In this document: piece after piece, positions 16,012 to 42,531 of the stretch
Position numbering within the stretch: the first letter of the stretch is position 1
How the letters are laid out: every line of letters starts with the position of its first letter
DNA from: Spirochaetia bacterium
GTDB taxonomy: Bacteria; Spirochaetota; Spirochaetia; CADAEX01
Length of the DNA: 64,000 bases
Assembly: GCA_963662795.1 (NCBI GenBank)
Contig: OY759746.1
Location: 256,001-320,000, forward strand
Direction: 5' to 3'
Position numbers and translations under genes: made by a program
The notes under the pieces: generated by a model
The model's input: only the letters and a program-made list of their open reading frames with translations
Databases searched by the model: none
Told to the model about the DNA's origin: nothing

Positions 16012-16123
<112 letters not shown>

Positions 16124-16213
16124 TTAATTTAATTTTTTATTTCACCACAGTTATCAGGTGAAAACCTGATAACTCCAGCAAAATATATATTAAAAGAAGG
16201 GTTAAATAATAAT

Positions 16214-19213
<3,000 letters not shown>

Positions 19214-19420
19214 ATTACTTTTTAACCCTTCTCTATATTCTCCGTACTACTTTTCTTTCATACAGGAATCTTCTTTTTAAAGACCGAAGCCATTGATGGC
19301 GTATTTCTGCTTTAGCCCGTTTACCGGGTCAGCCGTAAAGGCAGTTAAAAGCAGTAATCGGAAATTTTAGATAAATGAAAAAAAGAAATTAAGAATATTT
19401 AAATTTTTTCATTTATTTAC

Positions 19421-19494
19421 TGGGCCTGACAAGACTTGAACTTGTGACCTCGCGCTTATCAGGCGCGCGCTCTAACCACCTGAGCTACAGGCCC
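19421..19494 (-). tRNA. tRNA-Ile(GAT), no encoded CCA
   Basis: GGGCCTGTAGCTCAGGTGGTTAGAGCGCGCGCCTGATAAGCGCGAGGTCACAAGTTCAAGTCTTGTCAGGCCCA folds as a cloverleaf. Confidence 0.97.
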
Positions 19495-19676
19495 AATTAA
19501 AGGGAACAATGCCCTAAAAAGGGTATTATACCCCATAATATTATAAAAAAAGAGGGAGACCTGAAGCTTAAATGGGCCGCCTTACTGCCGGTGTGATTGC
19601 TCACAACCCTGCGGCAAGGACTTTGATTACTCAACTGTAAATCCTTTCGGTTCTACTTAGAGCTTTATACCTTTCT

Positions 19677-21228
<1,552 letters not shown>

Positions 21229-34408: not shown

Positions 34409-35050
34409 CTAACCCTCACTTTTAAAATTCTTTGCCAATACTTCTCTGCTTTTTTTTATATGAAGCCTCATGAAATTTTCAGCTTTTTCCTGATTGCCTG
34501 ATTTAAGAAGGTCAATTATTTGTCTATGTTCATTTAGTGTCTCTGCTGGATCTCTTACTAACCCAATATTAAATGATAATAAACTGATATGGAAATTTGA
34601 AATAATGTCCGAAGTTAACTTTGCCCTACTGTAATCAACAATTTTTTCATGAAAATCTATATCACAATCAACATATTCATCATAATTTGATTCAGATACG
34701 GCTAATTTCATTTTTTGAAATATTTTTTCAAGTTCAAGAAATTCTCTATTTGATGTTCTAAGAGCAGCATATCTTGCGCTTAAACCTGCCGTGACTTCAC
34801 GCAAATCATAAATCTCAAGAATCTCTTCATTTGTATAATTTTTTAAGTAAACACCTTGTCTTGGATGATCTTCCAGAAGTCCATCTTTAACCAGAGCGGT
34901 AAAAGCCTTTTTTACAGTTGTTCTGCTAACTCCAAGCAAATCAGATATATGTTCTTCATTAATTTTTTGTCCAGGCTTAAAATTACGTTTAATAATCATT
35001 TTTCTTAGTTCAAAATAAGTCTGTTCACTTAATGTCTTGCTTAATGCCAT
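34409..35050 (-). CDS. GntR family regulator (FCD domain)
   Basis: LGVSRTTVKKA wHTH, EIYDLRE, DIDFH, EHRQII, MRLHI. Confidence 0.93.
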   Translation of the reverse strand: MALSKTLSEQTYFELRKMIIKRNFKPGQKINEEHISDLLGVSRTTVKKAFTALVKDGLLEDHPRQGVYLKNYTNEEILEIYDLREVTAGLSARYAALRTSNREFLELEKIFQKMKLAVSESNYDEYVDCDIDFHEKIVDYSRAKLTSDIISNFHISLLSFNIGLVRDPAETLNEHRQIIDLLKSGNQEKAENFMRLHIKKSREVLAKNFKSEG

Positions 35051-35075
35051 AAAATCCTCTCATTAAATATCGCGT

Positions 35076-35138
35076 TATTGCATGCAATATATCATCTTTG
35101 CATGCAATTATATTAACTTGCATGCTTTTACTTGTCAA
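35076..35138 (-). promoter_or_regulatory. Island promoter with three TTGCATGCAA operators
   Basis: TTGACA (35138-35133)-17-TAATAT (35115-35110); palindromes at 35078, 35098 and 35118 (last one TTGCATGCTT). Confidence 0.8.
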
Positions 35139-35275
35139 GAATTAATTTATTCTTTTTATTAAATTGCAATTTTCAAAACTATCGAGACAAAATCATATTT
35201 TAAATTTTTCTCACCTATTGCGCAAAGGAGTAAAATATTTAAAAATATCATTATCCAGATACGAAGGAGAATATT

Positions 35276-36370
35276 TTGAAAAAATTAATTGCTGTACTTG
35301 AAGGCGACGGAATAGGTCCTGAAATAATGAAGGAAGGGATCAAGGTTCTTAAAGCGGTAGAGAAAAGATACAACCATGATTTTACTCTTGAATATGCCCC
35401 TTTCGGAGCTTCAGCTTATTTTTCCGAAGGTTCTCCTTTCCCTGATAAAACAAAAAAAACATGTGATGCATCAGATGCCATCATCAAGGGGCCGGTTGGT
35501 ATTTCAGTTGAAAAAATGAACACTATCCCGCAGAAAATGCGCCCGGAAGCCGGAGCCATCCTCCCTTTAAGAAAAAGATACGATACTTTCGCAAACTACA
35601 GGCCGGTAAGACTGCCCGAAGCGCTTGCCCATTTTTCTCCGCTTAAAAAAGAAATAATCGGGAGCGGCGTTGATATCCTGATGATACGGGAACTTGTAGG
35701 CGGCATCTATTTCGGCAAAAAAACCGAAGGTGAAGACAACAACATGAAATTCGCAAGCGATGACTGCGTATATACAGAAGAACAGGTAAGGCGTATTGCT
35801 GTTGTTGCTTTTGAAGAGGCAAAAAAAAGAAAAACCCTTATGACAAATATACATAAATCAAACGTACTTGCGACTTCAAGATTCTGGAATGCGGTTATTG
35901 AAGAGGTAAAACAGGATTACAGGGATATTGAATATAAATCAGTCCTTGTTGACAATGCCGCCTACCAGCTCATGATCAATCCGCGGCAGTTTAACGGAGT
36001 TATGCTTTTTGAAAACATGCAGGGAGACATACTGACAGACCAGGCCGGGGGAATTTTAGGTTCAATGGGGCTTATGCCGTCAGCCTGCATAGGACCTGAA
36101 AAAGGGTATGTGGAGGCAGCCCACGGCTCTGCTCCTGATATAGCGGGGAAAAATATAGCAAACCCCTATTCCATGATTGGAAGTATCGCTTTTCTGTTTG
36201 AAAAAATATTCGCCCTTGAAGAGGAAGGCAGCCTGATCTGGAACTCCCTTTTCCGCCTGTTTGAGGAAGGGTATACGACCTATGAACTTGCCGGCGATAA
36301 AAACGGGGACAAAGTCTTAAGCACCACCGAATTTGGAGACAGAATTGCAGGGTATGTTTCAGGTACCTGA
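35276..36370 (+). CDS. leuB: 3-isopropylmalate dehydrogenase
   Basis: GDGIGPE, LRKRYDTFANYRPV, RELVGGIYFG, KSNVL, VDNAAYQL, EAAHGSAPDIAGKNIANP. Confidence 0.93.
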   Translation: MKKLIAVLEGDGIGPEIMKEGIKVLKAVEKRYNHDFTLEYAPFGASAYFSEGSPFPDKTKKTCDASDAIIKGPVGISVEKMNTIPQKMRPEAGAILPLRKRYDTFANYRPVRLPEALAHFSPLKKEIIGSGVDILMIRELVGGIYFGKKTEGEDNNMKFASDDCVYTEEQVRRIAVVAFEEAKKRKTLMTNIHKSNVLATSRFWNAVIEEVKQDYRDIEYKSVLVDNAAYQLMINPRQFNGVMLFENMQGDILTDQAGGILGSMGLMPSACIGPEKGYVEAAHGSAPDIAGKNIANPYSMIGSIAFLFEKIFALEEEGSLIWNSLFRLFEEGYTTYELAGDKNGDKVLSTTEFGDRIAGYVSGT

Positions 36371-36408
36371 AAATCCGCGAATTTTTTAATTTAATAAATA
36401 TAATCCGC

Positions 36409-36472
36409 TTGCCACACAACATATAGCGTGATATTATTATTCCTGTACTTAAAACTCCTACATATATGGGGT
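36409..36472 (+). promoter_or_regulatory. nrd operon promoter with NrdR boxes
   Basis: TTGCCA (36409)-17-TATTAT (36432); NrdR box ACACAACATATAGCGT (36414-36429) in the spacer; weaker second box at about 36457-36472. Confidence 0.82.
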
Positions 36473-36511
36473 GATTTGACGATAATTTAAACAAGACAGG
36501 ATGTAAAAAAA

Positions 36512-37063
36512 ATGCTCTGTCCCTATTGCGGCAGTATGGAAGACAAAGTAATAGAATCACGTCAGAATTCAACAGGAACTTCCATAAGACGGCGCAGGGA
36601 ATGCCTTGAATGTAAATACCGGTTTACTTCATATGAGCAGATTGAAGAAAAAAAGCTGATGGTTATAAAGAAAGACGGAAGCCGCGAACCTTTCGAATCC
36701 GTCAAGATAGCAAGAGGCCTTGAAAAATCACTTGAAAAACGTCCTGTCTCAACTGAAAAAGTAGATGAAATGCTTCAGGCTATTGAAGATGAGGCAAACA
36801 TGAAGGGAAAAAACAGCAGGGAAATCACAACCGCAGAAGTGGGAGATCTGGTTCTCAAACATCTTTTTGAAACAGATAAGGTTGCGTATATAAGGTTTGC
36901 CTCTGTTTACAGAATGTTCAGCGATGTAAATGAGTTTATGAACGAAATTGAAAAACTCACAGGAAAACAGAAAAAGAACAAAAGAGGGACCCCCGATGAA
37001 CCTTCGGCTGGTCCCTTTATCCCGGATTTTAAAAATCCGGGGCATACAGACACTTTGCCATAG
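36512..37063 (+). CDS. nrdR: Transcriptional repressor NrdR
   Basis: CPYC..VIESR..IRRRREC..C.RFTSYE zinc ribbon, ATP cone, VAYIRFASVYR; ~30-aa extra tail. Confidence 0.97.
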   Translation: MLCPYCGSMEDKVIESRQNSTGTSIRRRRECLECKYRFTSYEQIEEKKLMVIKKDGSREPFESVKIARGLEKSLEKRPVSTEKVDEMLQAIEDEANMKGKNSREITTAEVGDLVLKHLFETDKVAYIRFASVYRMFSDVNEFMNEIEKLTGKQKKNKRGTPDEPSAGPFIPDFKNPGHTDTLP

Positions 37064-37120
37064 GCACGCATTGCGATCGCCGGGGGCATAAGGAATTATT
37101 TTTTTCCAAGTGCCTAAAAA

Positions 37121-39271
37121 ATGACTGCACTCAGGGGGGGGGATGTGGATAGCAGCAATATTGGAGACTGGAAGGAATTTTTAAACCTTGAAGAAGGTAA
37201 AACAGAAAATTCTGCAATGATCAGACAGATTGCTAAACGGGACGGCAAAATTGAAAAATATGACAGGTGGAGGATTGCAAGCGCAATTGGGAGGGCAATC
37301 ACCTCTGTCAGTAACCAGGAAGATACTCAGCTGACAGAAGCTCTTACAGCTAAAACTGAAGAGAAAATCATGGAGCTTATGAAAACCAGACACAGGAATT
37401 CCATTCCTGCTGTCGAGGAAATCCAGGATACCGTAGAAGCCGTCCTGATTGAAGCAAACATTCCGCAGGTCGCGAAATCCTACATTATTTACAGGGCCCG
37501 CCATGAGGCAATGAGAGACACAAAAAAACTCATGCTTGATATCAATACTACTATGGACGGGTATCTGTCACAATCCGACTGGCGTGTAAATGAAAATGCG
37601 AATGTCAATTTTTCACTCGGAGGGCTTATCCTTCATAATTCAGGAACAATAACTGCCAACTACTGGCTTAAAAACATTTATCCTGAAGATGTGGCAACTG
37701 CCCACAGGGAAGCTGATTTTCATATACACGACCTTTCAATGTTTTCAGGCTACTGCGCCGGCTGGTCTCTGAGGCAGCTGATAAAAGAAGGACTTGGAGG
37801 GGTACCAGACAAGATCACTTCAAAACCGGCCAGGCATCTTTCCACACTGATACAGCAGATCGTAAATTTTCTGGGAATCATGCAGAACGAATGGGCAGGG
37901 GCGCAGGCCCTTTCAAGCTTTGATACATATCTTGCCCCGTTTATAAAAATCGACAATCTCTCTGACGAACAGACAAAGCAGAGCCTCCAGAGTTTTGTTT
38001 TCGGGGTAAATACACCGTCAAGATGGGGAAGCCAGGCGCCGTTTACCAATATTACCCTCGACTGGATTGTTCCTGACGATCTTAAAAATGTTAAGGCAAC
38101 TGTCGGCGGTGTTGAGCTTGATTTTACCTACGGCGATTGCCAGGAGGAGATGAACAGGATCAACAAGTGCTTTATTGAGCTTATGCTGCACGGAGACGCC
38201 AACGGAAGGGGGTTTCAGTATCCGATTCCGACATACAATATCACTAAATCTTTCGACTGGGAGACGGATAATGCAAGACTGCTTTTTGAAATGACGGCAA
38301 AATACGGGACACCGTATTTCCAGAATTTCATCAACAGCAGCCTTAATCCGGAAGACGTAAGATCAATGTGCTGCCGGCTTCAGCTCGACAAAAGGGAACT
38401 CAGGAAACGGGGCGGCGGCCTTTTCGGCTCGGATGAATTTACAGGCTCTATCGGAGTTGTAACAATCAACCTTCCAAGGATCGGCTATCTCGCAGGTTCA
38501 AAGTCCGACTTTTACCGCCGCCTTACAGACCTGATGGATACCGCGGCAAAGTCGCTAACAATCAAGCGCAAGGTAATTAACCGCCTTATGCAGTCGGGAC
38601 TTTTCCCCTATACAAAAAGATATCTTCAGCATCTCGACAATCATTTTTCCACAATCGGAATAACAGGGATGAACGAGTGCCTTCTCAATTTCATGGGAAA
38701 GGATATTACGACAGAAGAAGGGAAACAATTCGCACTTGATATACTTGACTTCATGAGAGAGCACCTGTCGCTTCTGCAGGAGAAAACAGGAAACCTTTTC
38801 AACCTTGAGGCAACACCTGCGGAAAGCACCAGCTACCGGCTGGCAAAACACGACAAAAAAAAATATCCTGATATTATTGCATCCGGCGATAAGGACCCGT
38901 ATTACACAAACTCAACATGGCTTCCTGTTAACTATACAGAGGATATTTTTGATGCACTTGATCACCAGGATGAGCTGCAGGCAAGATATACAGGGGGGAC
39001 GGTATTCCACGGATTTATAGGGGAAGCGCTTGATGACTGGAAATCGTGCAGGGAGCTTGTAAAGGCAATAGCAGAAAATTACAAACTGCCCTACTTTACA
39101 ATTTCACCGACTTTTTCCGTGTGCCCGGTACACGGGTATCTTTCTGGAGAGCATTTCAACTGCCCTAAATGCATGGATGAAGAAAAAGCAGGAATTACGG
39201 AAGAAATCAACAGATTAAAAACAGAAAAAGATAAAATTCAAAAAGAAATGATAAATCAGGAGGGGGAATAA
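37121..39271 (+). CDS. nrdD: Class III (anaerobic) ribonucleotide reductase catalytic subunit, redoxin-type, lacking the glycyl-radical loop
   Basis: ATP cone (KRDG); HIHDL..GYCAGWS; RSMCCRL finger loop; LEATPAES; YTGGTVFH; CPVH..CPKC Zn ribbon; no RxxGY. Likely true start is GTG at 37145. Confidence 0.93.
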   Translation: MTALRGGDVDSSNIGDWKEFLNLEEGKTENSAMIRQIAKRDGKIEKYDRWRIASAIGRAITSVSNQEDTQLTEALTAKTEEKIMELMKTRHRNSIPAVEEIQDTVEAVLIEANIPQVAKSYIIYRARHEAMRDTKKLMLDINTTMDGYLSQSDWRVNENANVNFSLGGLILHNSGTITANYWLKNIYPEDVATAHREADFHIHDLSMFSGYCAGWSLRQLIKEGLGGVPDKITSKPARHLSTLIQQIVNFLGIMQNEWAGAQALSSFDTYLAPFIKIDNLSDEQTKQSLQSFVFGVNTPSRWGSQAPFTNITLDWIVPDDLKNVKATVGGVELDFTYGDCQEEMNRINKCFIELMLHGDANGRGFQYPIPTYNITKSFDWETDNARLLFEMTAKYGTPYFQNFINSSLNPEDVRSMCCRLQLDKRELRKRGGGLFGSDEFTGSIGVVTINLPRIGYLAGSKSDFYRRLTDLMDTAAKSLTIKRKVINRLMQSGLFPYTKRYLQHLDNHFSTIGITGMNECLLNFMGKDITTEEGKQFALDILDFMREHLSLLQEKTGNLFNLEATPAESTSYRLAKHDKKKYPDIIASGDKDPYYTNSTWLPVNYTEDIFDALDHQDELQARYTGGTVFHGFIGEALDDWKSCRELVKAIAENYKLPYFTISPTFSVCPVHGYLSGEHFNCPKCMDEEKAGITEEINRLKTEKDKIQKEMINQEGE

Positions 39272-39798
39272 TGGAAAGGCTGCAGCAGATCGACGAGCAG
39301 ATAAAGGCACTTGAGGAAAAACGCTCAGCAGTTACAGGAACAGAAACAGAAGTTTATACAAGGATTGTAGGATACTACAGGGCTGTAAAAAACTGGAACA
39401 AGGGCAAGAGGGAAGAATACAGACACAGGATTTGTTTCTCAAGTCTTGAGCATAACAGGACAAACAGCATTGAAAAAAATACACTGCCGGAAAACAACGC
39501 TACAAAGGTTGTTGTTTTTGAAAACGCAGACAGGGAAAACATCACTTCATATTACTGTTTCTACAGGAAAACCTGTCCCAACTGTCCGTCTGTTAAAAAA
39601 TATATTGATAAACTCGGGATAAGAGGTGAATTTATTGATGCTGATACTCCTGAAGGGGCAATCATGGCAGTGGAAAGACAGGTTCTTTCTGTTCCGACCG
39701 TGATTTTTACCAACAGTCTGGACAAGGAAGTTGCACGGGCAAAAAACGTGCATGAAATCAGGGAAATACTGCCTGCCGCCCTGGTTTGCGCAGTTTAA
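39271..39798 (+). CDS. Stand-alone NrdD glycyl-radical domain fused to a thioredoxin/glutaredoxin-like domain
   Basis: TEVYTRIVGYYRAVKNWNKGKREEY (radical Gly34); CPNC at residues 102-105; VLSVPT cis-Pro motif; SD AGGAGG and TAATG overlap with nrdD. Confidence 0.85.
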   Translation: MERLQQIDEQIKALEEKRSAVTGTETEVYTRIVGYYRAVKNWNKGKREEYRHRICFSSLEHNRTNSIEKNTLPENNATKVVVFENADRENITSYYCFYRKTCPNCPSVKKYIDKLGIRGEFIDADTPEGAIMAVERQVLSVPTVIFTNSLDKEVARAKNVHEIREILPAALVCAV

Positions 39799-39887
39799 TT
39801 GCCGACAAAATCTCTCCCGGTCCGGTGATGGTATTCACGCGGCCTTTCCGGATCGGGTATTACCTCAGGTAAGCTTATATATCTATT

Positions 39888-40583
39888 ATGCCAATAAACA
39901 AAGCAGGATTTTTAAAGACAACCCTGATCGATTATCCGGGAAAAATCGCAAGCACACTGTTTCTTCCCGGGTGCAATCTAAGGTGTCCGTTCTGCCACAA
40001 CAGGGATCTTGTGCTTGGAGGAAAAGACAACCTCCTCCCGATTGAGGAAATACTTAGGTTTTTAAATAAAAGGAAAAACATTATTCAGGGAGTCTGCATA
40101 TCAGGCGGAGAGCCCCTTATCCATAACGATCTGCCGGATCTGATACGTGAAATAAGAAAAACCGGGGTAAAAATAAAAATCGACACCAACGGCCTGTTGC
40201 CTGAGAAACTGGCTGATATTTCACCCGACTATATCTCAATGGATATTAAGACATCGCCTTTAAAATACAATCTGCTTCTCGAAGGCATCGAGGCAGGAAA
40301 AACTGAAAAACTATTAAGGGAATCTGTAAAACTGATTATTGAAAGCGGAGTTGATCATGAATTCAGGACAACGCTTGTGCCGGGAATTGTCGACATTGAT
40401 GATATTGAAGTAATAGCGGAAATAGCAAACGGGTGTAAAAGGTTCACATTAAACAAATACAGACCGCAGAATACGCTTGACCCCTCTTATGAGAAGATAA
40501 TCCCCTTTACAGAGAATCAGTACAGATCTTTTTCAGAAGCTTTTGAAAAATCCGGAATAAAAGCTGTTTTCAGAGGCCTTTAA
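39888..40583 (+). CDS. nrdG: Anaerobic RNR activating radical SAM enzyme
   Basis: IDYPG, GCNLRCPFCHN, ISGGEP, KIDTNG, MDIK, EFRTT. Confidence 0.93.
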   Translation: MPINKAGFLKTTLIDYPGKIASTLFLPGCNLRCPFCHNRDLVLGGKDNLLPIEEILRFLNKRKNIIQGVCISGGEPLIHNDLPDLIREIRKTGVKIKIDTNGLLPEKLADISPDYISMDIKTSPLKYNLLLEGIEAGKTEKLLRESVKLIIESGVDHEFRTTLVPGIVDIDDIEVIAEIANGCKRFTLNKYRPQNTLDPSYEKIIPFTENQYRSFSEAFEKSGIKAVFRGL

Positions 40584-42531
40584 TATTCTCAAGAAGTTTG
40601 ATTATATAAAGTTCAATATAATTCCTGAACGGTTCCTTCTTTTTAATCCCGATTTTAGAGGTTTTATTCACAAGGTCGTCTGTAAGGGAAGCAATCCTCT
40701 TCACATCCGGCGGATAGCGGAGCATGAGCTTCTTTTTCTTCCTGATAAAATCCCTGACAAGTGAGTTTATATCCTCAACAAGATTTGCTCTTGCCGTTTT
40801 ATCATATAAAGGGTTCCACTTTTCCGCAAGTTCATCAAGCGTAGGATTTAAAGCCTTATCTCCCTTAAGGAATTTGCCTTTAAGTGTTTTGACAGCTTCC
40901 TGATAACCCGGAGCCTGAACAATTTTATCTCCTGACTGCTGTTTCGAGGCTGCCTCTCTTGATCCTTCGCCGAATTCCTGGAAAACCTCATCCGCCGGGG
41001 ATGCCCCGGACCCGCCCTGCTGAGGATATCCGGATCCTTCCTTTTTTTTACCCATAAAGAGAGCGCTGAGCGCAGCTATCAGTCTGCCGAATACAGGAAG
41101 ACTGTATTGTATCGGGAGAGAAGCTTTTACCTGCCTTAAAAGATCCTGTCTGTCAATTCCAAGGAGAACATCCATCTGTTTAAATTTTCCCGGTTCTGAA
41201 AAGCAGGAGTCAACAGACATCTTAATCCGGCTGTTGGTTTTATCAGTTTTGTTTGCGAGAAATATAAGTCCCGGGTTAAGCAGGGCATTCAGCAGTTTAT
41301 AGTCCGCTTTGACCAGGGCAGTAAGGGAATCGATAAAATCAGAATCATGCTGCATTTCCCTGTTTTTTTTGAATTTCCTTAAGATTTCACACCACTCCTG
41401 AAAATATTTTTCCCTTATTTCCTTGCTGTTTTCTATCAGTTTTTTCAGAAAAACCTGCGGAACCATGTCCCTCTGAATGTAATAATCTTTTTTACTGTCA
41501 ACAGATACCTTCACAAGATACGGAAGGTCCTCTCCTTCTTTTACAATTGTTGCAGTTTTTATAAACTCGGTGACAAACTCGCGTGAATATTTGGCGCTGT
41601 AGGGTTTTCCGGCATTATCTGTTATTTCATACATTTCACTGCTGCTGAAAATTAAAGGCGGGTTTTTTACCTTTACAGCCAGGTCTTTTAAATCATTTTT
41701 CTTCTGTACATCCTGCTGGACAAGGGCTCTGCCGTGTGTAATAAATGCCCTGAGCATCGACATGGATTGGTATGTGTAAATATCGGAGGCTGTTTTATCA
41801 TTTTTATCAGCAAGATCCTTCAAAACCTTGTTGCACATAAATGAGAAAAACTTGAATGCAAAGTCTGCGGGTTTTCTTATATGGTCCCTGAAATTTGAAG
41901 GCCCGTTAAGCATTGATTCCATCATGGTTTTCACTGCCATTTCATTGCCTTCAAACGCTTTTCTCAGGTATCGCCCCAGATATGCGTAATTGTTCTGGTT
42001 TTGAATATAAAGGTGTATTTTCTTGAGAACCAGGTCAAAAAAGGTTGTCTTGATAATCTCCGGCGGGACAACTATATCGCTTATTCCTTCCTGAAATTCT
42101 ATTATGGCGACTTTTCCTTTTTCAGCTTCAGGAAAATTCATTATATCCATAAAATTGCCCTGAATACTGAATACCATAATCCAGTTTGTATCTATTGTAA
42201 AACTGAAAGACCTGAGGTCAGGAAAAGGGATGTCCGGACGGTCTTCAAGGTTTTTATAATACTTCATTATAAGCTGTCTGTAGTATTTATGGATCTGGAA
42301 AGAGGAAATACGGGCGGATTCATAATTGATTGTACAGCTGCCCTCCGCCTCCATTTTTTTCAGAACAGGTATTGCGGAAAGCCTGAAGTCTTCGGCATTC
42401 CTCAGTTCCACCTGTTCCCTGTTTGATTCAAACCAGGAAGTAAGCTGATCCATGAAGAATGTGTAGTTTATTAAAGGATTATTCCTTTTAATTACAAGAA
42501 CCTTGATTATTTTTTCTATTATTTCATACAT
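40570..42531 (-). CDS. Hypothetical protein (653 aa, soluble, mostly helical)
   Basis: Long ORF with normal codon usage; C-terminal WNPLYD..ARANLVEDINSLVRD; no motif recognised. Confidence 0.7.
   Translation of the reverse strand: MYEIIEKIIKVLVIKRNNPLINYTFFMDQLTSWFESNREQVELRNAEDFRLSAIPVLKKMEAEGSCTINYESARISSFQIHKYYRQLIMKYYKNLEDRPDIPFPDLRSFSFTIDTNWIMVFSIQGNFMDIMNFPEAEKGKVAIIEFQEGISDIVVPPEIIKTTFFDLVLKKIHLYIQNQNNYAYLGRYLRKAFEGNEMAVKTMMESMLNGPSNFRDHIRKPADFAFKFFSFMCNKVLKDLADKNDKTASDIYTYQSMSMLRAFITHGRALVQQDVQKKNDLKDLAVKVKNPPLIFSSSEMYEITDNAGKPYSAKYSREFVTEFIKTATIVKEGEDLPYLVKVSVDSKKDYYIQRDMVPQVFLKKLIENSKEIREKYFQEWCEILRKFKKNREMQHDSDFIDSLTALVKADYKLLNALLNPGLIFLANKTDKTNSRIKMSVDSCFSEPGKFKQMDVLLGIDRQDLLRQVKASLPIQYSLPVFGRLIAALSALFMGKKKEGSGYPQQGGSGASPADEVFQEFGEGSREAASKQQSGDKIVQAPGYQEAVKTLKGKFLKGDKALNPTLDELAEKWNPLYDKTARANLVEDINSLVRDFIRKKKKLMLRYPPDVKRIASLTDDLVNKTSKIGIKKKEPFRNYIELYIIKLLENIKGL

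Follow-up and report, generated by a model that had tools for sequence, protein, structure and literature searches.

The present work concerns a window of 64,000 nucleotides from the genome of a Spirochaetia bacterium (contig OY759746.1 of assembly GCA_963662795.1, positions 256,001 to 320,000), and all coordinates given without a further label are those of this window. On its plus strand two overlapping open reading frames (ORFs) were found, which appear to encode a class III ribonucleotide reductase (RNR) in two pieces. The first ORF (37121-39271) codes for a 716-residue NrdD consisting of an ATP-cone, a barrel, a finger loop, a zinc site and a tail helix and lacking the glycyl-radical loop. 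In the 175-residue product of the second ORF (39271-39798) a helix, the glycyl-radical loop, a linker and a redoxin domain follow each other. Glycyl-radical enzymes are regarded as bearing the radical on their own C-terminus. We estimate the probability that the two polypeptides make one working class III RNR at about three in four.

The large chain is recognised as an NrdD barrel by the models of the NRDD family, as it matches Pfam NRDD (PF13597, 595.7 bits) over positions 1-538 of 562 and NCBIfam PRK08270 over positions 2-660 of 684 (1083 bits, cut-off 548). Its closest solved relative is the NrdD of T. maritima (4coi), residues 200-685 of the query being aligned with 111-609 of the 651-residue chain. 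The ATP-cone occupies residues 36-129 (37226-37507; PF03477, 5.2e-17). The finger loop M416-C417-C418-R419-L420, the thiyl radical site (38366-38380), is invariant in 67 aligned large subunits, and so are E563, A564, P566, A567 and E568 of the active-site Glu motif NLEATPAE (N561 to E568; 38801-38824) as well as all four residues of the C-terminal zinc site (C668-x2-H671...C681-x2-C684; 39122-39172), in which His replaces the second Cys. The zinc site is followed by a 32-residue tail with an amphipathic heptad helix (39173-39268), the last codons of which contain the Shine-Dalgarno sequence of the small ORF. The RxxGY loop, which an NrdD is expected to have on the same chain, sits at residues 31-35 of the next ORF. 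Among the 120 nearest large subunits 119 are likewise without the loop and end 22-39 residues past the zinc site.

In the small ORF the ATG at 39271 is the sole start codon within the open frame. The protein begins with an amphipathic heptad helix (residues 1-22; 39271-39336), after which the glycyl-radical loop (residues 23-56; 39337-39438) matches positions 532-561 of PF13597 at residues 25-55 and has the Gly34 codon at 39370-39372. A variable linker (residues 57-92; 39439-39546) leads to a thioredoxin-fold domain (residues 93-175; 39547-39795; PF00462), where C102-P-N-C105 lies at 39574-39585 and Pro142 at 39694-39696. In the Pfam scan the small ORF matched NRDD, Glutaredoxin and Thioredoxin_3, besides one chance hit, and no glycyl-radical family of the pyruvate formate-lyase (PFL) type. 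The ORF has 1666 homologues of 96-307 residues; RxVGY and CxxC are present in all the 120 listed ones, at a motif-to-CxxC distance of 59-105 residues, and CPNC in 114 of the 120. In 81 aligned small proteins, with a mean column identity of 33%, G23, E27, Y29, R31-R37, C102, C105 and P142 are invariant, together with the additional loop positions N41-N43, G45, K46, E49 and R53, and the conservation of these residues appears to be more than chance.

At the junction of the two ORFs (39258-39273, plus strand) AGGAGG occupies 39258-39263, a run of five G 39262-39266 and the stop/start overlap TAATG 39269-39273. The earlier note on this DNA, made from the letters alone, had described a 716-residue NrdD ending past its zinc site in a heptad helix without RxxGY, and a next ORF with its own Shine-Dalgarno sequence and a TAATG overlap, which encodes a heptad helix, a glycyl loop with Gly34, a linker and a CPNC/cis-Pro domain. 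All these elements were confirmed in the sequence, and reading of the junction also confirmed that a single extra G at 39262-39266 joins both ORFs in frame. The sixth G was looked for in independent assemblies and was not present. Contigs of four public runs from at least three studies were aligned to 38900-39900, and those of none of the runs have an indel in the G-run, the sole listed indel being at 39815; two of the four runs may be the source sample, and contigs lose rare variants. The contigs of one run with a different organism label and study (X4) span 38900-39900 with 6 substitutions and 0 gaps, and a wastewater contig (X8) spans 39182-39422 without a gap.

Both ORFs are under strong purifying selection. 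The ratio of nonsynonymous to synonymous substitution rates (dN/dS), computed against the nearest relative as one pair, was 0.157 for the entire small ORF, with 0.038 for the helix and the loop (codons 1-57), 0.27 for the linker and 0.13 for the redoxin, and it was 0.045 for the last 200 codons of the large ORF.

The arrangement was followed in the 80 best species loci taken from a scan of 185,579 species genomes. In 74 of these the enzyme is split and the large gene is adjacent, in one the small gene stands without its large neighbour, four are truncated by contig ends and one is fused. The junctions vary from overlaps of -1 or -4 to gaps of about 400 nucleotides. In the 71 scored loci the frame offset is 0, 1 or 2 in 21, 21 and 29 cases, respectively, and the stop codon is TAA in 47, TGA in 21 and TAG in 3. 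A free-standing small frame of 162-199 residues was seen in 31 of 40 relatives, and a profile search over 1.84 billion cluster representatives gave 155 matches at E <= 1e-30, the best 150 of which are all 125-345 residues long. The earlier note had suggested that the split is natural and that genomes should be searched for a loop-less NrdD followed by a small RxxGY/CxxC ORF; in this search the split loci, the split point and both helices proved to be conserved and the homologues were not uniformly single-chain. Judged from these sequences, the split is natural and ancient. One genome carries a second, ordinary single-chain NrdD (950-residue frame, G132:C1:1172175-1174097) besides the split one.

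The two genes were also found apart. In two complete, single-contig genomes of the same genus, G056 and G254, the large gene, a 710-residue frame with the heptad tail, lies at 712 kb and 1446 kb, and the small gene together with nrdG, the gene of the activase, at 1315 kb and 937 kb, respectively. In a metagenome-assembled genome (G041) the large gene and the small gene with nrdG are on two different contigs, and the large gene is adjoined downstream by parA/parB-like genes. In all three unlinked cases examined nrdG accompanies the small gene. The small protein is thus the product of an autonomous gene, as had been supposed. Since the genes are more than 500 kb apart or on separate contigs, frameshift, read-through and cis-splicing cannot join them.

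The two terminal helices were compared position by position. In 119 large tails, counted from the CxxC, the residues at +8, +12 and +15 are hydrophobic throughout (100%) and those at +22 in 95% of the cases, and +19 is always K or R. In 120 small proteins, counted back from Arg31, positions -27, -24, -20, -17, -13 and -10 are hydrophobic (86-100%) and the Gly at -8 is invariant. By this pattern both helices are predicted to be strict a/d heptads. The heptad helices, noticed earlier on both chains, are conserved and are kept even in genomes with unlinked genes and no redoxin, which argues that they would serve the assembly of the enzyme and not the coupling of translation. The strongest co-variation among 85 distinct pairs consists of charge swaps at +16/-16 and +11/-21. 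With position i in register with -(i+5), the swap positions are e-e' and g-g', so that the charge swaps would fit an antiparallel helix pair. As in the forms with 8 residues, the beginning of the loop has to lie near the zinc site, so that the large helix is expected to start close to where the small one ends.

The arrangement can be compared with about 26 single-chain relatives of 807-885 residues, which contain the barrel, the loop, a linker and a CxxC domain. Most of them have 8 residues between the zinc site and the loop, like the ordinary NrdD, and are without the helices. In P0129 and P0138 a 34-residue insert is found between the zinc site and the loop, and in P0131, also one chain, a 50-residue insert corresponds to both helices joined by an 8-residue loop; the small subunit aligns with P0131 from residue 4, the helix included. 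On these alignments, the split form looks to be a redoxin-fused NrdD with a helix-loop-helix insert, severed in the loop of the insert.

In order to see how the split forms are distributed, the small-subunit profile was run over 301 evenly drawn Spirochaetota genomes, of which 141 match at E <= 1e-10; the forms were counted by hand from the rows of 132 listed genomes among the 141. About 118 genomes among the matches listed have the loop in a short free-standing frame. The helix+loop+redoxin form seen in the window is present in 41 of the genomes listed (frames of 160-235 residues), the helix+loop form without redoxin in 9, which are all the sampled genomes of one genus (105-148 residues), and the loop alone, called here the mini form, in 68 (50-238 residues). 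The remaining listed genomes have a form fused with the redoxin (3 genomes, 835-877 residues), long ordinary frames (10 genomes, 710-849 residues) or an unclear form (1 genome). Three large Spirochaetota families in the sample were without a match (0/45, 0/38 and 0/17). The two-piece form is widespread in this phylum, to which oral and gut treponemes belong; candidate cultured carriers are Marispirochaeta aestuarii, Treponema pectinovorum ATCC 33768 and T. socranskii ATCC 35536.

The mini form was also read by sequence, and 25 of 26 loci (L134-L136, L139-L141, L196-L214) are two-piece, the motif search being blank in the 26th. The large chain has 682-744 residues in 24 loci and ends with CPxxH and about 17 residues of another kind. 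The small ORF is 50-69 residues long in 23 of the 25 loci (58 residues in an example) and matches NRDD positions 533-562 only. The gap between the genes reaches 185 nucleotides with any frame offset, two gaps having been computed as negative owing to the start codon chosen, and nrdG lies downstream. In one of these loci (L139, genome G052) the large subunit is interrupted, giving frames of 290 and 452 residues, and the mini loop ORF and nrdG are intact; a pseudogene or a sequencing error is possible there. In the helix+loop form (L137, L138, L143, L144; G254, G056) a protein of about 95 residues without the redoxin is encoded together with nrdG.

A core tree was computed from rows ending at the zinc site (IQ-TREE quick, LG+G4, 44 rows); of the 40 split rows 11 were retained, of the 29 fused rows 9, and five rows with long branches were removed. 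The mini form makes up a clade (support 99) next to an ordinary NrdD (support 100), apart from a 36-row group (support 100) of helix, fused and other ordinary forms. Constraining all split rows to one clade costs 314 log-likelihood units (p of the approximately unbiased test, p-AU, 3.5e-37); the constrained group was chosen after the FastTree result had been seen, which weakens the p-value and hardly the effect size. The tree rejects a single origin and points to two or more breaks of the chain at an identical structural position. For the helix group the trees allow more than one order of events among fission, fusion and loss of the redoxin.

The loop gene also occurs in excess of the barrel and in viruses. 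Four genomes of the mini type (G199, G183, G242, G151; L215-L225) each have one barrel gene and several free-standing loop genes (1+3, 1+3, 1+4 and 1+2), and the three extra loop copies whose surroundings were read are intact, lie among unrelated genes and have no nrdG. A scan of viral contigs gave 49 loci (L146-L194), in 40 of which the loop is in a frame of at most 250 residues. About 13 of these 40 short frames are helix+loop proteins of 63-103 residues and one is a helix+loop+redoxin protein of 166 residues; the remaining ones start inside the zinc-site motif. In L150 a heptad-tailed large gene stands directly upstream of the loop gene. In a search over the full length of five viral records of the helix type, the loop gene was the only NRDD-family match in all five; two of them have a completeness of at least 92% and one bears terminal repeats, and fragments cannot prove absence. 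The genes next to the loop gene in these records are of the phage primase, helicase, methyltransferase and phosphatase families. An Rfam scan revealed no intron in 8 viral loci whose short frames begin within the zinc-site motif, and 11 viral loci gave no Rfam match, so that introns of a recognisable kind are no explanation for the short frames of the viruses. GenBank phages gave 2 weak matches, neither of them reaching the helix.

From these data the following working model can be put together. The large subunit would provide the ATP-cone, the zinc site and a ten-stranded barrel whose finger loop has the Cys-Cys pair, and the small subunit would supply the glycyl-radical loop in trans. For docking, the end helix of the large chain would pair, most likely antiparallel, with the start helix of the small one and thereby seat Gly34 by Cys417/418 in the barrel, as in the single-chain enzyme. 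NrdG, encoded beside the small gene, would generate the radical on Gly34, the CPNC domain on its loose linker of about 35 residues would re-reduce the active-site disulfide at each turnover, and a thioredoxin reductase encoded elsewhere would restore the CPNC domain. In this clade the TAATG overlap may couple the translation of both ORFs. In PMC9669993, where the double-Cys finger-loop motif class is described and from which the criteria were drawn, the redoxin-dependent NrdD subtype is characterised by a double-Cys finger loop and an active-site Glu, both of which are present here (MCCRL, NLEATPAE), and the two features would agree with the redoxin-using type.

A more far-reaching reading, which we put forward tentatively and do not favour over its contrary, is that in Spirochaetota the loop is a free and exchangeable cofactor, mobile, in some genomes present in several paralogous copies, and phage-borne, which is activated by NrdG off the barrel and replaced after cleavage by O2. 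The loop protein would dock through the pairing of the helices, and the mini form through its loop only, and phages would equip the host barrel with a radical subunit of their own, sustaining the deoxyribonucleotide supply in infection; in the form seen here the disposable subunit would also bring the reductant. The extra loop genes per barrel and the phage-borne loop genes may be taken as circumstantial backing for such an oxygen spare-part economy.

Several other explanations were weighed against the two-chain enzyme. A sequencing or assembly frameshift at the five-G run would make the true gene one chain of about 890 residues; one added G would indeed merge the frames and a relative, P0147, shows such a fused reading, but the contigs of the four runs have no such indel, 74 of the 80 loci are split with differing junctions, long gaps and every frame offset, and in the two complete genomes the genes are far apart. 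For the family, a single chain of this kind disguised by sequencing error is refuted by the intact junctions, the split loci and the unlinked genes, the comparative evidence being stronger than that of the contigs, and the chance left to it is next to nil. The single chain could also be rebuilt by recoding, be it through a frameshift of the ribosome, read-through of the stop codon or splicing at the RNA or protein level. The overlap of the ORFs in TAATG or ATGA next to a G-run in this clade and the common frame of both ORFs in 21 of 71 loci would suit this, but the unlinked genes and the spacers of up to about 400 nucleotides would not, Rfam recognised no intron or RNA family in 35000-42000, and the two inserts amount together to about 56 residues, with no intein family in the Pfam scan of either ORF; we regard recoding as very improbable. 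A split intein in particular was rejected on the same Pfam result and on the size of the inserts, 32 and about 22 residues; genuine inteins were found in other NrdDs (P0160, P0168; PF14528, PF14890). The ORFs might further be a decaying pseudogene in a cell that has lost class III RNR and has a class I/II enzyme in charge. The genome does encode one class I/II RNR large subunit (C1:3132938; PF02867, 371.9 bits), but the purifying selection on both ORFs, the invariance of the catalytic residues over 67 large and 81 small sequences, the intact nrdG and the retention of the arrangement across many families led us to reject the pseudogene as extremely improbable.

Two further alternatives accept the two chains and concern their meaning. 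Neutral gene fission, in which the two chains act exactly like the single-chain form and the helices only mend a broken backbone without any benefit, is the main rival to the attractive spare-part reading, and we consider it possible, though on balance doubtful. The trees show single-chain forms interspersed with split ones, which speaks for it, and so does the occurrence of split forms in other RNR classes, such as the class II enzyme of Pseudomonas aeruginosa, where a natural catalytic chain is reportedly encoded in two genes, NrdJa and NrdJb. However, the fission at the same site at least twice (by the constrained tree against one clade), the 3-4 loop genes per barrel in some genomes and the loop gene standing alone in 5 of the 5 phage records are more easily read as the use of a module. 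The CPNC domain, on the other hand, might not feed the active site at all, and might guard the radical loop, reduce NrdG or another partner, or be a relic. The helix+loop form has lost the domain, the mini form never had one, and no family cut-off beyond the bare Pfam one is reached by it, but C102, C105 and the cis-Pro are invariant in the 81 sequences, the low dN/dS of the redoxin indicates constraint, and an equal domain is C-terminally fused in the roughly 26 single-chain double-Cys NrdDs; such a diverted role is in our opinion unlikely.

Some observations weigh against the proposed two-chain, redoxin-fed enzyme. The support for it consists of the gene architecture, its conservation, the purifying selection and the independence of both genes, all directly observed in genes and comparative sequence. 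A contig of run X1 (867 nucleotides, depth 3) links 39172 to 39394 via 57 other letters, a joint length that fits the unsplit NrdD of another organism in that sample. The relative P0147, 572 residues long, reads through a split-type junction at a Gly-rich stretch and stops 45 residues past the loop; this is either a homopolymer error or a genuine re-fusion. Three single-chain forms nest among the split ones in a weakly supported tree. The dN/dS of the 32-codon tail is 0.31 (one pair), and the charge-swap signal comes from 6-7 of the 85 distinct pairs, probably of one or two clades and few events. The redoxin domain only just reaches the Pfam cut-off (Glutaredoxin PF00462 over residues 97-147, 23.1 bits against 22.9) and no NCBIfam cut-off (YruB 18.8 against 88.6, mycoredoxin 18.6 against 89.5), and its PDB sequence matches are weak only, to small thioredoxins (best E = 0.009). 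The redoxin is also dispensable in kin, forms without it being common (2 of the 3 split forms). The earlier description of the enzyme as redoxin- rather than formate-dependent holds as far as the double Cys and the Glu are concerned but was overstated, because Met416 is kept in the finger loop and the redoxin is missing from two of the three split forms. According to PMC9669993, double-Cys enzymes with Met may possess components for either reductant, and with Met416 retained formate may serve as a reductant here too.

Compared with known systems, the two-chain enzyme stands closest to the single-chain double-Cys NrdDs, those of T. maritima (PDB 4coi/4u3e) and Neisseria bacilliformis (the latter according to PMC9669993). 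These share with it the ATP-cone or barrel, the MCCR loop, the active-site Glu, the C-terminal zinc site, the glycyl loop sequence and the NrdG activase; however, their loop lies about 8 residues past the zinc site on the same chain, whereas here it is on a second protein with a helix and a redoxin. The single-chain NrdDs with a C-terminal redoxin (P0121, P0123, P0135, P0139; 807-885 residues) share the barrel, the loop, the linker and the CPNC-type domain and are 33-45% identical to the small subunit over 77-95% of its length, but they are one chain, mostly with 8 residues between the zinc site and the loop. No paper was found on these fused forms.

GrcA (YfiD) is similar in being a small free-standing glycyl-loop protein that serves a large barrel made separately. 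It backs up a complete PFL following cleavage by O2. Here, in contrast, the large chain has no loop, which would make the small protein obligatory, and the small subunit matches the NRDD family and has a putative docking helix and a redoxin. It shows no PFL-type homology and, with a single loop-less barrel in the genome, there is no complete enzyme to back up, so that the small subunit lies outside the GrcA family and possibly works like GrcA by analogy. Section 5.3 of a 2026 review (PMC13450708) gives the formate lyases as the sole class of glycyl-radical enzymes with spare-part glycyl proteins.

Two other RNR classes offer looser parallels. In class I RNR (alpha + beta) catalysis and radical storage are likewise on separate polypeptides; this is an analogy only, since the radical subunit there is a metal-tyrosyl protein of ferritin fold, the radical transfer is long-range and no loop is inserted into a barrel. 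The NrdJa/NrdJb pair differs in its class, in its split point and in having no radical-bearing piece. No description of a split class III RNR was found in the literature searched, which mostly did not cover subscription journals, so an earlier mention is possible.

As far as sequence can tell, the enzyme itself is a known one and its quaternary architecture is new. With the radical loop on an obligatory separate subunit, such a class III RNR would be a new quaternary form of an essential enzyme, and it could serve as a natural test system for how the buried loop exits the barrel to reach the activase and for the installation of the radical off the enzyme. The split suggests an oxygen-repair economy in microaerotolerant anaerobes, and the phage loop genes point to a possible new class of phage auxiliary gene. 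There is an annotation gap as well: the small proteins are named inconsistently in the databases (reductase, thioredoxin, glutaredoxin, hypothetical), and no NCBIfam model attains its cut-off for any small form. Among the relatives of the small subunit a 171-residue protein with 47% identity (P0026) bears the label of a transcript from Anaeramoba ignava, an anaerobic protist, and could originate from a symbiont, from contamination or from gene transfer.

The two ORFs lie between nrdR and nrdG, all on the plus strand. The nrdR gene (36512-37063), encoding a repressor with a Zn ribbon and an ATP-cone (PF22811, 4e-19; PF03477, 3.7e-22), is the first gene of the likely operon, and an NrdR-like signature on the same strand occurs in 65 of the 80 related loci. 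Upstream of nrdR, at 36409-36437, lies the best sigma-70-like match of the region (10/12, with TG), which is overlapped by two palindromes at about 36414-36431 and 36459-36475. Both palindromes resemble NrdR boxes, and this would suggest autoregulation of an nrdR-nrdD-small-nrdG operon. The nrdG gene (39888-40583) codes for the cognate radical S-adenosylmethionine activase of a class III RNR (TIGR02495, NrdG2, 176.1 bits, cut-off 131), and an nrdG-like ORF stands directly 3' of the small gene in 69 of the 80 related loci. The genome has a single NrdD barrel locus, without any loop in that barrel chain, and a search of it gave no second NrdD barrel and no further glycyl loop of the NRDD family; a thioredoxin reductase gene is present (384.5 bits, cut-off 343). 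In the RNA sequencing runs 4-6% of the words were present.

Elsewhere in the window, a 652-residue ORF on the minus strand (40570-42531) converges on nrdG and matches no Pfam family at E <= 0.01. A complete rRNA operon, also on the minus strand, occupies 16012-21226 and comprises the 16S (19682-21226), tRNA-Ile(GAT) (19420-19495), 23S (16214-19211) and 5S (16012-16122) genes.

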